From: Cyanidioschyzon merolae
Taxonomy: Eukaryota
Length of the DNA stretch: 64,000 bases
NCBI GenBank assembly: GCA_000091205.1
Contig: AP006492.2
Strand: one strand, 5' to 3'
Made by a program: the position numbers and the translations under genes. Below, one piece after another: positions 31,708-50,949 of the stretch. Under the pieces are notes generated by a model. It saw nothing but the letters and a program-made list of their open reading frames with translations. It did not search any database and was not told the DNA's origin. Each line of letters starts with the position of its first letter. The first letter of the stretch is position 1.

Positions 31708-34283
31708 TACTCTGTTCTATGGAATAGTGGACGACAATGATCGTTCACCATTTACGCAGTAGAGGCTTTCGCTGTGCGTATATGGGGCACGCTGGACTTG
31801 CTGGATCGCTGAACCGTACCCATACCAGTGCCGTGGTCCATGCGAGAATCCCCTGCCCTGTGACTTTACCACAGATTTTTTTCATCGAAAGTCGCTAGCG
31901 TTTCAGCACAGTGCATGTACCGAGTCCTCAACGAGGATCTCGAACGTTCGCTCGATACAAAGCCGTTCGACGCCCCGCATGCACGAGATATCTCCATATG
32001 TTGAGCGGGGCGTTCGAGTCTCGGCGCCGAAAGTACGTGTACGCCAAACTGTTGCTGGCGGAATCACAACGTCGCAAGCAACGCCCTTGTGATTGCCCCA
32101 GTATCTGGGGTTGCGTCAGCGAACCGAGCACCATACAGTGCATCCGGCTCTGTGCAACGCTCTTGTTCTCTATCTTGCTCAGCGTGCGCCTGCGCTCATG
32201 ATACCTGTATGTAGTCTTGGAGGCCCGTCGATGCGCATCGCAGCAGCTCAATGCCTGGACCCGGTCGAGGCTCCATACAAGGATCGGAGGCAGCGCCTTT
32301 CCGCACGAGCGTACGTCCAGCAGCGTGGGCTACCGTCGAGCGACTCGCTGACCAGTGATTTGCGTATCTGACTCATCGGAGAAGAGGGATGGTGCACGCT
32401 TCTCGCATCGGTGCAAGTGAGGCCGTCGGCGACCCCAGCACCGGCTCATGTGCGTTTGCCAAAGCGTATCCGCGTGAGTCGTTCGTGGCGGCCCGTATAC
32501 GTTGCGCGTGAAGCGTAGAAAGCACACGTCGCTGCTCGATACGGTGCATAGCGCATCGAGACGAGCCCAGACGCTGTCTTTCGACTTGTCGGTATGCCTG
32601 CTGGCGTCATTGGTGCCCGGATCCCGACAATACCGCGCCCTGGAAGAGCTGAGCAGCTTCATCCGCTCTCCGTTCATGTCTCTCGCGCCGTCGTCCTGTT
32701 TAGAGGTACGGCAACCGCGGTGACGCCTTTCAAACTGGAATCCACGCTCTCCACAACCTCGCTCCCTCTGCTTGCCTTGAACGGTCGCAAGAGCGAGCCT
32801 GGTATCTCGAAACAGGTCTAGGTTTTACAACGTGCGTTCAGCTGGGTATGCCGTCGCTCTCCGTGGACCCTGTGAAACTCGAGTCCATCTCCTCGCTACA
32901 GACGAGAAACCAGGAACGCGATGCACCAGTGTCCTCGCGAAGCTCCTGAAGCGCTGCCTACTTGTACGCGTGAACCAGCTGTACCTCATTGTAGCGCCCA
33001 TCCAGTACACGAATTTGTGTCTATGGTGATCGCTTGGGCCTCGATGTGGTACATGGAGCCACCATCGAACAGACGCTTCGTGTGTCGAGGGCGCTCGCAT
33101 ACAACCAGCTAGTCTGCTCTGTTCTGCTCTGTTGTGTTCTGCTCTGTTGTGTTCTGCTCTGCCCTGCTCTGCTCTGCTCTGCCCTGCTCTGCTCTGCTCT
33201 GCTCTGTTCTGCTCTGTTCTGCTCTGTTCTGCTCTGTTCTGCTCTGTTCTGCTCTGCTCTGACAAGCATGACTGGCGAATACGCGGAAGCGCAAGATATA
33301 ACGACGGCTGGCACACATCAGGTTCCGAACTTGCTGTGGGTATGACGTGTGTCGCTCCGAGGCCGACAACTACACGATGCGCTTCGACGACCTGAAGCGA
33401 CGCTCGCGCTCGATGCCACGTCTATGCTGTTTTGCATGGCGTCCTGTTTCTTACTTCTTTTATCTAAAAATAGGCCTTGACAATGGTTTCAGGCTGGGTT
33501 TTCGGCTCCGACGGGTTTCGCATCCGGTCCGTCCTCGTTCTCTGTGTCCAGTGCGTGCATCGCCTTGTTGCGGACTCGGCGCGGGCGCCTAGGTATGGTC
33601 GCGATACTCTGTGGCCGGTTTTTCCGGGGGATTCACTCATGCAAACACACACACACACACACTGGGTGGACGGCGGTACTGAAACTCATCTTGTCTATGA
33701 ACGCATTTGCGATTCCTCAGGTACGTCCTCGTCTGCTTCTCAGTTGCGAGCATATCCACACGCCGCCGAGCGCCTTTCCGCACCCTCCCCTATAAACAAA
33801 ATCAGCGAAGCAGCAGCAAAGTCTCCTTGAGTGAGACGACCAACCTTATCTTCCCTCCTGTAATGAGCGTTCGCTGCCAAGTACGAAATCGATCGCGTGT
33901 CTTGTTCAACGCGCGACGGTCTCTTGTACATGTGCACGTTTTTTGCAGAGTCCATGCACGTCTCTTCATAGCCGTTTGCATCAGCGGTCCGGAAACGTCA
34001 TATCCTGCTGCTTCCTCGGTCGTATCTCTTAGAGAACGTACGCTGCGGAATGTTTCGACGAGGAGACGATCGTGCGGTTACACTTTGACATGTTGTGTTT
34101 TGGGCGCACAGCGTTCAGGATACGGTCGACGCGTACCATGGTGCAGTCACCTGCTCGCAGCAGAATCACTGACCCGCGCAACGAAACCCATTTTTCGCAA
34201 GCGAGCAGTAACGTCAGCAAGACTTTCCGTGAGCTCAGTCCATTCTACAGGACACTTGGCTTTTGTTGAATACCCGCAAGGAA
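31708..34283. repeat. Left arm (~2.58 kb) of a large inverted repeat; partner at 48372-50949
   Basis: Mirrored six-frame ORFs with near-identical translations are present, for example 31911-32201(+) against 50456-50746(-), and 34147-34395(-) against 48322-48504(+). The nucleotide-level boundaries were found by eye: the outer edge is at ...catactctgttctatgg, and the inner edge is at ...gttgaatacccgcaaggaaaacga. Internal (CA)n at 33644-33662 and GCTCTG(T/C)TCT arrays at 33108-33259 are mirrored in the partner arm. Confidence 0.85.
33108..33259. repeat. Degenerate decamer tandem array GCTCTG(T/C)TCT inside the IR arm (mirrored at 49391-49543)
   Basis: Read directly from the sequence: gctctgttctgctctgttgtgttctgctctg... 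Confidence 0.75.
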
Positions 34284-34571
34284 AACGAAAAAAACAAAAA
34301 GACGTGCTGGCTAATGTGTGCCCGCATTGAAGACGCAGAGTTAACACCCAGATTGTTGTCGCGATAGTGCCTGCCCGAGACGAGCGCTCGTGCACTATGC
34401 GGCTGGAGCTGCGACTGTACCAAAGAGAGAGTGGAATTCGTTTACTCCTTCGACGATGGGTTTAAAGAGCACCGCTAGAAAACACAGTCGATCGGCCATG
34501 CAACACGATTCGCGCTGTGCTTGAACCAGACCAGGGTGCAAGGACGCTCAACCATTGGCAAACCGATCGTA

Positions 34572-48116: not shown

Positions 48117-48371
48117 CATGGAGTCGCCAACAGCACCGGTGTTTCCAGAAGAACCGCATCCTGTGATACGTGAAAGCCCATGTCGAAGAACGGTCGATCA
48201 AGTGTGTGCGGTATAAAGTAAGCTCTTGTTGGCTCGCGGCAGTGACCGCAAAGGTTCCCATCTCGCACGACGCTGAACGCGGTGAGGGTATTCAGCATGC
48301 GTATGCCTCTCAGCGGGCTGCATGCTGGAATATCGTTACCGGAAGAGCCGTTCTGTTTTTTATCGTTTTCC

Positions 48372-50949
48372 TTGCGGGTATTCAACAAAAGCCAAGTGTC
48401 CTGTAGAATGGACTGAGCTCACGGAAAGTCTTGCTGACGTTACTGCTCGCTTGCGAAAAATGGGTTTCGTTGCGCGGGTCAGTGATTCTGCTGCGAGCAG
48501 GTGACTGCACCATGGTACGCGTCGACCGTATCCTGAACGCTGTGCGCCCAAAACACAACATGTCAAAGTGTAACCGCACGATCGTCTCCTCGTCGAAACA
48601 TTCCGCAGCGTACGTTCTCTAAGAGATACGACCGAGGAAGCAGCAGGATATGACGTTTCCGGACCGCTGATGCAAACGGCTATGAAGAGACGTGCATGGA
48701 CTCTGCAAAAAACGTGCACATGTACAAGAGACCGTCGCGCGTTGAACAAGACACGCGATCGATTTCGTACTTGGCAGCGAACGCTCATTACGGGAGGGAA
48801 GATAAGGTTGGTCGTCTCACTCAAGGAGACTTTGCTGCTGCTTCGCTGATTTTGTTTATAGGGGAGGGTCCGGAAAGACGCTCGGCAGCGTGTGGATATG
48901 CTCGCAACTGAGAAGCAGACGAGGACGTACCTGAAGAATCGCAAATGCGTTCATAGACAAGTTGAGTTTCAGTACCGCCGTCCACCCAGTGTGTGTGTGT
49001 GTGTGTTTGCATGAGTGAATCCCCCGGAAAAACCGGCCACAGAGTATCGCGACCATACCTAGGCGCCCGCGCCGAGTCCGCAACAAGTCGATGCACGCAC
49101 TGGATACAGAGAACGAGGACGGACCGGATGCGAAACCCGTCGGAGCCGAAAACCCAGCCTGAAACCATTGTCAAGGCCTATTTTTAGATAAAAGAAGTAA
49201 GAAACAGGACGCCATACAAAACAGCATAGACGTGGCATCGAGCGCGAGCGTCGCTTCAGGTCGTCGAAGCGCATCGTGTAGTTGTCGGCCTCGGAGCGAC
49301 ACACGTCATACCCACAGCAAGTTCGGAACCTGATGTGTGCCAGCCGTCGTTATATCTTGCGCTTCCGCGTATTCGCCAGTCATGCTTGTCAGAGCAGGGC
49401 AGAGCAGAGCAGAGCAGAACACAACAGAGCAGAGCAGAGCAGAGCAGAACAGAGCAGGGCAGAGCAGAGCAGAGCAGAGCAGAGCAGGGCAGAGCAGAGC
49501 AGAACACAACAGAGCAGAACACAACAGAGCAGAACAGAGCAGACTAGCTGGTTGTATGCGAGCGCCCTCGACACACGAAGCGTCTGTTCGATGGTGGCTC
49601 CATGTACCACATCGAGGCCCAAGCGATCACCATAGACACAAATTCGTGTACTGGATGGGCGCTACAATGAGGTACAGCTGGTTCACGCGTACAAGTAGGC
49701 AGCGCTTCAGGAGCTTCGCGAGGACACTGGTGCATCGCGTTCCTGGTTTCTCGTCTGTAGCGAGGAGATGGACTCGAGTTTCACAGGGTCCACGGAGAGC
49801 GACGGCATACCCATCTGAACGCACGTTGTAAAACCTAGACCTGTTTCGAGATACCAGGCTCGCTCTTGCGACCGTTCAAGGCAAGCAGAGGGAGCGAGGT
49901 TGTGGAGAGCGTGGATTCCAGTTTGAAAGGCGTCACCGCGGTTGCCGTACCGCAAAACAGGACGACGGCGCGAGAGACATGAACGGAGAGCGGATGAAGC
50001 TGCTCAGCTCTTCCAGGGCGCGGTATTGTCGGGATCCGGGCACCAAAGACGCCAGCAGGCATACCGACAAGTCGAATGACAGCGTCTGGGCTCGTCTCGA
50101 TGCGCTATGCGCCGGTATCGAGCAGCGACGTGTGCTTTCTACGCTTCACGCGCAACGTATACGGGCCGCCACGAACGACTCACGCGGATACGCTTTGGCA
50201 AACGCACATGAGCCGGTGCTGGGGTCGCCGACGGCCTCACTTGCACCGATGCGAGAAGCGTGCACCATCCCTCTTCTCCGATGAGTCAGATACGCAAATC
50301 ACTGGTCAGCGAGTCGCTCGACGGTAGCCTACGCTGCTGGACGTACGCTCGTGCGGAAAGGCGCTGCCTCCGATCCTTGTATGGAGCCTCGACCGGGTCC
50401 AGGCATTGATCTGCTGCGATGCGCATCGATGGGCCTCCAAGACTACATACAGGTATCATGAGCGCAGGCGCACGCTGAGCCACATAGAGAACAAGAGCGT
50501 TGCACAGAGCGGGATGCACTGTATGGTGCTCGGTTCGCTGACGCAACCCCAGATACTGGGGCAATCACAAGGGCGTTGCTTGCGACGTTGTGATTCCGCC
50601 AGCAACAGTGTGGCGTACACGTACTTTCGGCGCCGAGACTCGAACGCCCCGCTCAACATATGGAGATATCTCGTGCATGCGGGGCGTCGAACGGCTTTGT
50701 ATCGAGCGAACGTTCGAGATCCTCGTTGAGGACTCGGTACATGCACTGTGCTGAAACGCTAGCGACTTTCGATGAAAAAAATCTGTGGTAAAGTCACAGG
50801 GCAGGGGATTCTCGCATGGACCACGGCACTGGTATGGGTACGGTTCAGCGATCCAGCAAGTCCAGCGTGCCCCATATACGCACAGCGAAAGCCTCTACTG
50901 CGTAAATGGTGAACGATCATTGTCGTCCACTATTCCATAGAACAGAGTA
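48372..50949. repeat. Right arm (~2.58 kb) of the large inverted repeat; partner at 31708-34283
   Basis: This is the reverse-complement of the left arm at high identity (ORF translations differ by only a few residues). It contains mirrored (CA)n at 48985-49003 and decamer arrays at 49391-49543. Confidence 0.85.

Follow-up and report, generated by a model that had tools for sequence, protein, structure and literature searches.

The window, a stretch of 64,000 nucleotides, belongs to chromosome 10 of Cyanidioschyzon merolae 10D. Two long inverted repeats (arms) enclose a core of eight genes, which runs from CMJ109C (RPL10) to CMJ117C (sulfite reductase). The features are, by position in the window:

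27919-29214, minus strand: F-box/SPOC gene (CMJ108C), left flank, across the left arm from RPL10
30722-31354: 158-bp satellite, outside the repeat, 4 copies in 10D and 2-3 in environmental contigs
31704-34296: left arm, 2593 bp, non-coding; (TCTGC)n microsatellite at 33113-33261, CA run near 33640, A-rich inner end
33325-34317, plus strand: part of the left arm homologous to a paralogue, with 21 bp of RPL10-side spacer; about 65% nucleotide identity
34297-48353: core, 14,057 bp, eight-gene block CMJ109C-CMJ117C
34297-34571: spacer b between left arm and RPL10, 275 bp
34572-35216, minus strand: RPL10 (CMJ109C, BAM80244), 3' end toward the left arm
35715-36332, plus strand: RPL15 (CMJ110C)
36351-36764, minus strand: MBF1 (CMJ111C)
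38151-40430, minus strand: Sec13 (CMJ112C)
41508-42035, plus strand: TMCO1/EMC3-family gene (CMJ114C)
42235-43047, minus strand: DUF427/NTP_transf_9 gene (CMJ115C), maximal ORF; homology with relatives spans 42301-42933
43181-44054, plus strand: RuvX/YqgF-like gene (CMJ116C), intron-containing; exon matches 43181-43327 and 43608-44054
45921-48116, plus strand: ferredoxin-dependent sulfite reductase (CMJ117C), 3' end toward the right arm
48117-48353: spacer c between sulfite reductase and right arm, 237 bp
48354-50953: right arm, 2600 bp, reverse complement of the left arm
51892-53421, minus strand: NOB1 (CMJ120C), right flank, across the right arm from sulfite reductase

Self-BLAST and repeat search both give one inverted pair. 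Self-BLAST aligns the arms over 2600 columns at 98.5% identity (32 mismatches, 4 gap openings). Boundaries are sharp at both ends. When the (CAGAG)n microsatellite (33113-33261 and 49390-49543) is left out, 26 of 2422 sites differ (1.07%), a divergence close to that between strains (0.2-1.6%) and similar to the 0.71% published for 10D and MS1 (PMC13353863). About 10 substitutions in the right arm are private to 10D.

The initial annotation had described a near-identical, sharply bounded long inverted repeat around housekeeping genes; self-BLAST and inspection of the junction sequence bear this out, and the genes are intact. The arms that it placed at 31708-34283 and 48372-50949 form a real pair, with ends 4-18 bp short. 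All seven core genes that it named are present; the intron-containing RuvX-like CMJ116C had been missed. The 158-bp satellite lies on the left side only, as reported, at 349 bp from the arm and not abutting it. Exact look-up of the 509-aa NOB1 product returned no record.

Arms and their paralogue

Each of the four junctions between arm and flank is found again in independent environmental assemblies (JGI, ENA, Logan), five environmental contigs span a whole arm, and the arms carry side-specific edge variants. Because the junctions and the whole-arm crossings recur independently, the arms are not an assembly artefact, a doubt that the initial annotation had raised. An error in assembling or finishing the 10D reference, by which a repeat was collapsed or mirrored or the core was misoriented, could account for short-read assemblies that break exactly at the arms and leave core contigs of 14.0-14.5 kb. 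Such an artefact is effectively refuted by that recurrence, and by arms that differ at 26 sites with edge variants proper to each side.

The arms are without recognisable coding content, as had been stated earlier. ORFs within them have no match in Pfam or NCBIfam, transposase and reverse transcriptase families included. No Rfam match is obtained at gathering or E-value thresholds; the tRNA scan is empty. Sensitive blastn and tblastn with the arm give no match in the remainder of the window or at relatives' syntenic loci. Target-site duplications, proposed earlier as a check at the arm edges, are absent: no matching short repeats occur at the flanks (31703, 34297, 48353, 50954), either as direct pairs or in the exchanged pattern that follows an inversion. 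Terminal inverted repeats are absent, the termini of an arm not being complementary. In JGI metagenomes the 26-mer of the outer arm end occurs in its two known contexts only, and further near-identical copies are not found by this search. A centromere with repeats around its core, of the fission-yeast type, was considered and dropped, since expressed housekeeping genes fill the core and an AT-rich region is lacking. No paper on this repeat or this particular inversion was found in the literature.

A paralogue of the arm's inner 1 kb, about 65% identical, lies between genes on another C. merolae chromosome (L055, 7238-8573; chromosome-16-type, 908,485 bp). A representative search gave no further relative. 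The homology with the paralogue runs past the left (RPL10-side) boundary of the arm, with 17 matches in 21 bp, a score reached in 0 of 2000 shuffles; beyond the right (sulfite-reductase-side) boundary it is not significant. Since the homology crosses the boundary on the RPL10 side only, the left inner junction appears to be the parental one, and the repeat boundary would be a breakpoint and not the terminus of an element. The junction on the sulfite reductase side would be the new break.

Orientation of the gene block in related algae

The eight-gene block has the opposite orientation, and no arms, in Cyanidiococcus (two sequences), in a second relative (three sequences) and in the outgroup Cyanidium caldarium (one sequence). 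An inverted repeat around the block is absent in these relatives; their spacers are 0.4-2.4 kb. The F-box gene adjoins sulfite reductase in the three other lineages, Cyanidium included, and RPL10 in C. merolae. NOB1 adjoins RPL10 in Cyanidiococcus and the second relative, and sulfite reductase in C. merolae. The ortholog tables of PMC13353863 give the same gene order. The arms occupy exactly the two spacers whose neighbours changed. The spacers of C. merolae do not align with those of the relatives by sensitive blastn or tblastn, being too diverged.

Because all three other lineages, the outgroup included, share the opposite orientation, the inversion is derived in the C. merolae line. The eight-gene block of C. 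merolae is a derived inversion with the arms at both breakpoints.

The Cyanidium locus used for polarity was reached via RPL10 (match P0160). The sulfite reductase match in Cyanidium (P0093) was rejected as a marker: it is a CMG021C-type paralogue beside nitrate reductase and gives no polarity. The initial annotation was made from one sequence, which could not reveal an evolutionary inversion with arms at the breakpoints.

Origin of the arrangement

The arrangement is probably a fixed, lineage-specific inversion on C. merolae chromosome 10, at whose breakpoints a 2.6-kb non-coding spacer has been duplicated in inverted form. The ancestral order would have been F-box gene, sulfite reductase ... 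RPL10, NOB1. On the way to C. merolae, about 2.6 kb of repeat-derived non-coding DNA (X) would have entered the RPL10 downstream spacer. The block would then have inverted, with X left at both ends as mirror images. The likeliest route may be a single event, by staggered breaks around X and subsequent fill-in or by a replication template switch, in which the F-box/sulfite-reductase spacer would have been opened by a simple break. The old junctions would be X/RPL10-spacer and X/NOB1-spacer. Afterwards the arms would have stayed a low-divergence pair (1.07%), and occasional gene conversion between them is hinted at. One paralogue and 21 bp suggest where X lay before the inversion. The spacers on the RPL10 and NOB1 sides together measure 1214 bp, against 1208 bp for the RPL10-NOB1 spacer of Cyanidiococcus, and this near-match fits X as a later insertion and not as old spacer. 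Repeat-driven intergenic expansion in C. merolae has been reported by Cho et al. 2023. A recent segmental inverted duplication, one alternative of the initial annotation, comes close to this reading; the block itself is truly inverted and the arms stand at its breakpoints.

An origin in two steps is possible, though rather unlikely: X would first have been duplicated in inverted form into the F-box/sulfite-reductase spacer, and homologous recombination between the copies would then have flipped the block, which may still flip on rare occasions. One-step and two-step origins are inseparable because they predict an identical end product, down to which junctions are old and which are new. Two-step origin requires more events. 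With a length of 2.6 kb and about 99% identity, the arms offer ample substrate, and homologous recombination is efficient in C. merolae. The arms do not group by side among strains. Both 10D arms have G at 49858 and 49870 (right-arm coordinates) and all environmental arms have A; the shared G suggests exchange between the arms. In one sequence (L022), the arm linked to sulfite reductase has an allele of the left type at its outer edge. Such mosaic patterns may, however, stem from short-read collapse of the arms. All five arm-crossing contigs, which come from environmental populations, have the 10D orientation, and flipped linkage is seen in 0/5; these are short-read metagenome assemblies across a repeat, with mis-joins possible and power limited. 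Between 10D and MS1 Ha3, rearrangements are reported on chromosomes 3 and 19 only, and no inversion on chromosome 10 (PMC13353863). Both observations speak against the plastid-style or flip-flop segment that had been proposed earlier. The lack of grouping by side is in itself a hint only of concerted evolution; de Bruijn assemblies merge both arms. It is improbable that the locus is a recurrently invertible nuclear segment, in which ongoing gene conversion keeps the arms alike and mitotic or meiotic homologous recombination occasionally flips the block. Were it so, orientation could be a hidden structural polymorphism, and RPL10, RPL15 and sulfite reductase could be affected in their recombination or expression. 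A selected functional switch, with orientation altering gene expression as in the flip/flop mating-type loci of yeasts, is scarcely credible. The architecture is comparable, with a 14-19-kb segment between repeats of about 2-3 kb; the core, however, holds housekeeping genes only, with 3' ends toward the arms, the five arm-crossing contigs reveal no orientation polymorphism, and the mating-type region of C. merolae lies on chromosome 11 (CMK076C-CMK078C; PMC13353863). A mating-type flip-flop is rejected on account of this location and of homothallic switching not being seen in C. merolae (PMC13353863).

It is very unlikely that a mobile element, present in two copies as the arms, caused the inversion (TIR or foldback element, composite transposon, or duplicative intramolecular transposition). 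In its favour, inversions are commonly mediated by transposon pairs, an interspersed repeat averaging about 3.2 kb is present in 253 copies in C. merolae (PMC1955436), a diverged paralogue of the arm's inner 1 kb stands on another chromosome, and other dispersed repeat fragments lie close by. The arms nevertheless have no target-site duplications in either expected pattern, no terminal repeats, and no match to a transposase, a reverse transcriptase or any other family. The arm end has two contexts only in the metagenomes, the arm is unlike the rest of the window and the relatives' syntenic loci, and the paralogue homology passes one boundary only, so that the boundary would be a breakpoint. 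The giant foldback or TIR element of the initial annotation is not upheld on these grounds, nor by any further near-identical copy. The arms are also no common dispersed repeat, a case that it had allowed for; part of the arm has one old paralogue at about 65% identity.

The best reading is a real but ordinary type of rearrangement, a possible recombination substrate and neither a demonstrated flip-flop nor a transposon. The locus reveals no new class of genetic element or switch. It records the origin of a gene-order change in a genome that is among the simplest of free-living eukaryotes, with base-resolved breakpoints, known polarity and one junction identifiable as putatively parental. These arms are where short-read assemblies of Cyanidioschyzon break. 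Gene-targeting constructs based on homologous recombination near CMJ108C-CMJ120C could cause unwanted inversion or gene conversion. The locus is a ready natural assay for inverted-repeat recombination; crosses and T2T genomes now exist for C. merolae.

Comparison with known systems

Flip/flop mating-type loci (Ogataea, Komagataella), the 2-micron plasmid and plastid inverted-repeat isomers are invertible by recombination between repeats. The C. merolae locus resembles them in repeats of about 2-3 kb and a segment of tens of kb. It differs in being nuclear and single-copy, in the lack of mating-type or regulatory cargo and of a recombinase, and in that both isomers are not seen.

With the human inversions by non-allelic homologous recombination (NAHR), as outlined in PMC3961182, the locus shares long inverted repeats of high identity around a unique segment, undisrupted genes and hints of gene conversion between the arms. 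Unlike the polymorphic inversions of that account, it has no detected polymorphism or recurrence, with 5/5 contigs in the same orientation.

The 253-copy interspersed repeat of C. merolae (Nozaki et al. 2007, PMC1955436) occurs on all chromosomes and has a truncated WSV486-like ORF. Like it, the arm is kb-sized, Cyanidioschyzon-specific, non-coding or pseudo-coding intergenic DNA with a partial paralogue elsewhere; unlike it, the arm has one paralogue found, over about 1 kb only. Another dispersed family in the window (24452-24865, 30041-30455, 56.3-57.4 kb) better fits the 253-copy repeat. It has no similarity to the arms.

The staggered-break (isochromatid) model has been described for inversions of Drosophila and Anopheles. 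Drosophila inversions with inverted duplications at their breakpoints were reportedly described by Ranz et al. in 2007. The C. merolae locus differs from such cases in its host, a red alga whose genome is very compact, and in that the 2.6-kb duplication affects one of the two breakpoints only. The duplicated sequence would be single-copy in the un-inverted ancestor; the spacers of relatives are unalignable to the arm, and the databases yielded no intermediate Cyanidioschyzon lineage. Each copy would have one parental and one novel junction, the comparison here covering the inner junctions. Transposon hallmarks are absent from the arms, as in the insect inversions. As in these, the segment is inverted relative to outgroups, and a unique, non-mobile sequence stands once on each side, mirrored, exactly at the breakpoints.

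Inverted repeat and enclosed genes

Chromosome of C. merolae 10D carrying the window is 839,707 bp in size. Self-comparison of the window yields a single long inverted pair:

31704–34296, left arm, between the F-box gene and RPL10
48354–50953, right arm, mirror copy of the left arm, between sulfite reductase and NOB1

The arms are 98.5% identical over 2600 columns (32 mismatches, 4 gap openings), have sharp edges at both boundaries and enclose 14,057 bp. With the (CAGAG)n microsatellite excluded, divergence between them is 1.07% (26/2422 sites). The pair reported in the initial annotation is real and was correctly placed, its coordinates being off by 4–18 bp. 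Both terminal genes of the core point outward, so that their 3′ ends face the arms.

Genes of the block and its flanks, in window order. Entries with a BAM accession were identified by exact protein match; the locus tags are from the supplementary tables of PMC13353863.
CMJ108C, F-box/SPOC gene, left flank
CMJ109C, RPL10, BAM80244
CMJ110C, RPL15, BAM80245
CMJ111C, MBF1
CMJ112C, Sec13, BAM80247, 38151–40430
CMJ114C, TMCO1-like
CMJ115C, DUF427 gene
CMJ116C, RuvX-like, intron-containing
CMJ117C, sulfite reductase, BAM80251
CMJ120C, NOB1, right flank

Sec13 of C. merolae is 759 aa long, with a long C-terminal extension rich in proline, alanine and glutamine; the orthologue in relatives is 584–695 aa. 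Directly upstream of MBF1, at 36919–36998, the 12-bp unit TTTTCAGTTCGC is tandemly repeated 6.6 times; the array gives an (EKRT)n ORF extension and varies in length among six environmental contigs (L001–L006). Published protein tables skip CMJ118 and CMJ119 between CMJ117C and CMJ120C (48117–51891), and numbering runs from CMJ108C to CMJ109C without a gap; non-protein features, possibly transcripts, may therefore be annotated on the right-arm side alone, within the arm or close to it.

Arm ORFs gave no match in Pfam or NCBIfam, and neither an Rfam family nor a tRNA was found in the arms, in agreement with the earlier view that they hold no recognisable gene. Nothing similar to the arms was detected elsewhere in the window or in syntenic loci of the relatives. 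In a scan of JGI metagenome contigs, the outer-end 26-mer of the arm matched seven contigs, and each of the seven represents the left-flank junction, the right-flank junction or the inside of an arm; at high identity, then, the arm exists in two copies.

Other repeats are present nearby. The 158-bp satellite (four copies, 30722–31354) is confirmed, although 349 bp separate it from the outer edge of the left arm, which it does not abut as first described; environmental contigs L025, L036 and L039 carry only 2–3 copies, hence copy-number polymorphism. A second inverted pair, 24452–24865 and 30041–30455 (about 415 bp, 89% identical), encloses CMJ107C (cyclin-like) and CMJ108C (F-box). The pair belongs to a dispersed, diverged family, of which other fragments are found at 56289–57446, 13502–13849 and 44691–44913, 71–76% identical; the total is about 2.5 kb. 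An interspersed family of 253 copies is known in C. merolae (PMC1955436); its description is better matched by the dispersed family of the window than by the arms, and that dispersed family may be the 253-copy element itself (Nozaki 2007). A 251-aa ORF at 56289–57044 (−), without Pfam or NCBIfam matches, ends C-terminally in ...NRDLNAAINLLRL, reminiscent in sequence of a TnpB/Fanzor RuvC motif. A 103-bp tandem repeat (54919–55319, 3.9 copies, 98% identical) is located between NOB1 and the gene beyond it; in contig L038 the array is apparently shorter. A perfect 73-bp duplication occupies 983–1128.

Gene order in relatives

Compared were Cyanidiococcus yangmingshanensis in two assemblies (L007, L013) and a second relative in three contigs (L009, L010, L014). 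Order in both is cyclin-like, F-box, sulfite reductase ... RPL10, NOB1, 1445-aa protein. Order in C. merolae is F-box, left arm, RPL10 ... sulfite reductase, right arm, NOB1, with the same flanks and the block reversed. The ortholog tables of PMC13353863 agree: CcyanHa1 g648–g657 correspond to CMJ108C, CMJ117C, 116C, 115C, 114C, 112C, 111C, 110C, 109C and CMJ120C. Because C. merolae branches outside the pair of Cyanidiococcus and second relative in the tree derived from protein identities, polarity requires an outgroup. Cyanidium caldarium (L043) keeps all eight block genes, with F-box adjoining sulfite reductase; the C. merolae order is therefore the derived state. Spacers of the relatives at both sites are only 0.35–2.35 kb, and no inverted repeat surrounds their block. 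This lineage-specific inversion thus has its two breakpoints exactly where the arms lie.

Junctions and origin of the arms

The 207-aa arm ORF, used as query in a complete HMMER scan, recovered itself and one diverged relative, P0304 (44% amino acid identity), on contig L055. The 14-3-3 and ArsA proteins of this contig are identical to 10D BAM81856 and BAM81853 of a 908,485-bp chromosome. With nhmmer, arm positions 33325–34324 align to L055 7238–8573 at about 65% identity. The arm's inner 1 kb is therefore a low-copy repeat of old origin, which fits the repeat-driven intergenic expansion described for Cyanidioschyzon (PMC9812998). The paralogue lies within a 2.4-kb intergenic region upstream of the ArsA gene BAM81853 and has an insertion of about 430 bp relative to the arm. 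The alignment runs past 34296 toward RPL10 (17/21 bp match; anchored score reached in 0/2000 shuffles), whereas beyond the inner boundary of the right arm, toward sulfite reductase, no significant L055 match is found (223/2000 shuffles). By this asymmetry the junction of arm and RPL10 spacer appears parental, that of sulfite-reductase spacer and arm appears to be the novel breakpoint, and the repeat boundary does not look like a mobile-element terminus.

The structure is most probably an inversion with inverted duplication at its breakpoints. The 2.6-kb non-coding spacer DNA now present as both arms (X) would first have been located downstream of RPL10, between RPL10 and NOB1, as fits the parental junction; block and X would then have been inverted, with X retained or copied on the NOB1 side. 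RPL10-side and NOB1-side spacers sum to 275 + 938 = 1213 bp (strict intergenic counting) and resemble the 1208-bp RPL10–NOB1 spacer of Cyanidiococcus, which agrees with X having been inserted only in the C. merolae line. In a one-step route, staggered breaks (or a template switch) on either side of X could duplicate it while the block inverts; the staggered-break model has been applied to many Drosophila inversions. Alternatively, X may first have been copied in inverted orientation into the F-box/sulfite-reductase spacer, and the two copies may then have undergone homologous recombination; this route would leave an identical structure with the same old and new junctions, but is less favoured because parsimony prefers one step. 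Origin from a transposon pair is unlikely, for none of the hallmarks looked for is present: no terminal inverted repeats were detected in the arms, target-site duplications are absent at the arm edges in the direct and in the post-inversion exchanged pattern, and the boundary does not resemble an element end. Nor do these results give evidence for the foldback element suggested initially. All four junctions turn up again in independent assemblies from JGI, ENA and Logan, as do five crossings of a whole arm, which excludes an assembly artefact.

Orientation and exchange in strains

Orientation is informative only from molecules spanning the whole arm. Contigs L015, L021, L045 and L046 join sulfite reductase, arm and NOB1 flank; L040 joins F-box flank, arm and RPL10. 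The 10D linkage is thus found in 5/5 arm-crossing contigs, with no evidence for active flip-flop; the initial interpretation is supported in part, the inverted duplication being real and the segment between its copies truly inverted. For 10D and Yellowstone strain MS1 Ha3, a T2T comparison reports chromosomes 3 and 19 as the only ones rearranged (PMC13353863). An inversion of 14 kb might, however, be missed in a dot plot of whole genomes.

Right-arm positions 49858 and 49870 are G in both 10D arms and A in all environmental arms. Interior arm variants do not segregate by side; side-specific sites are only 3–8 bp from the arm edges. These patterns are suggestive of exchange between the arms, and only suggestive because de Bruijn assemblies merge both arms. 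Private substitutions relative to all environmental arms number about 10 in the 10D right arm and 2 in the left. The sulfite-reductase-linked arm of L022 (JGI 3300050380), a contig ending at the outer edge of the arm, has the left-arm allele 3 bp from that edge (corresponding to window 50951); conversion, polymorphism or an assembly switch could account for it. Arm divergence between strains is 0.2–1.6%, comparable to the left/right value, as is the genome-wide divergence of 10D and MS1, 0.71% (PMC13353863). The duplication is common to all sampled strains and, given the low divergence of its copies, is therefore either barely older than their common ancestor or homogenised since.

Geometry of arms and core is like that of repeat-mediated polymorphic inversions and of yeast flip/flop loci. 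Unlike in both, no coexisting orientations are found in the available data and, unlike in flip/flop loci, the block is without regulatory cargo; the mating-type region of C. merolae is on chromosome 11 (PMC13353863). The locus is a well-resolved further example of an already known type of rearrangement.
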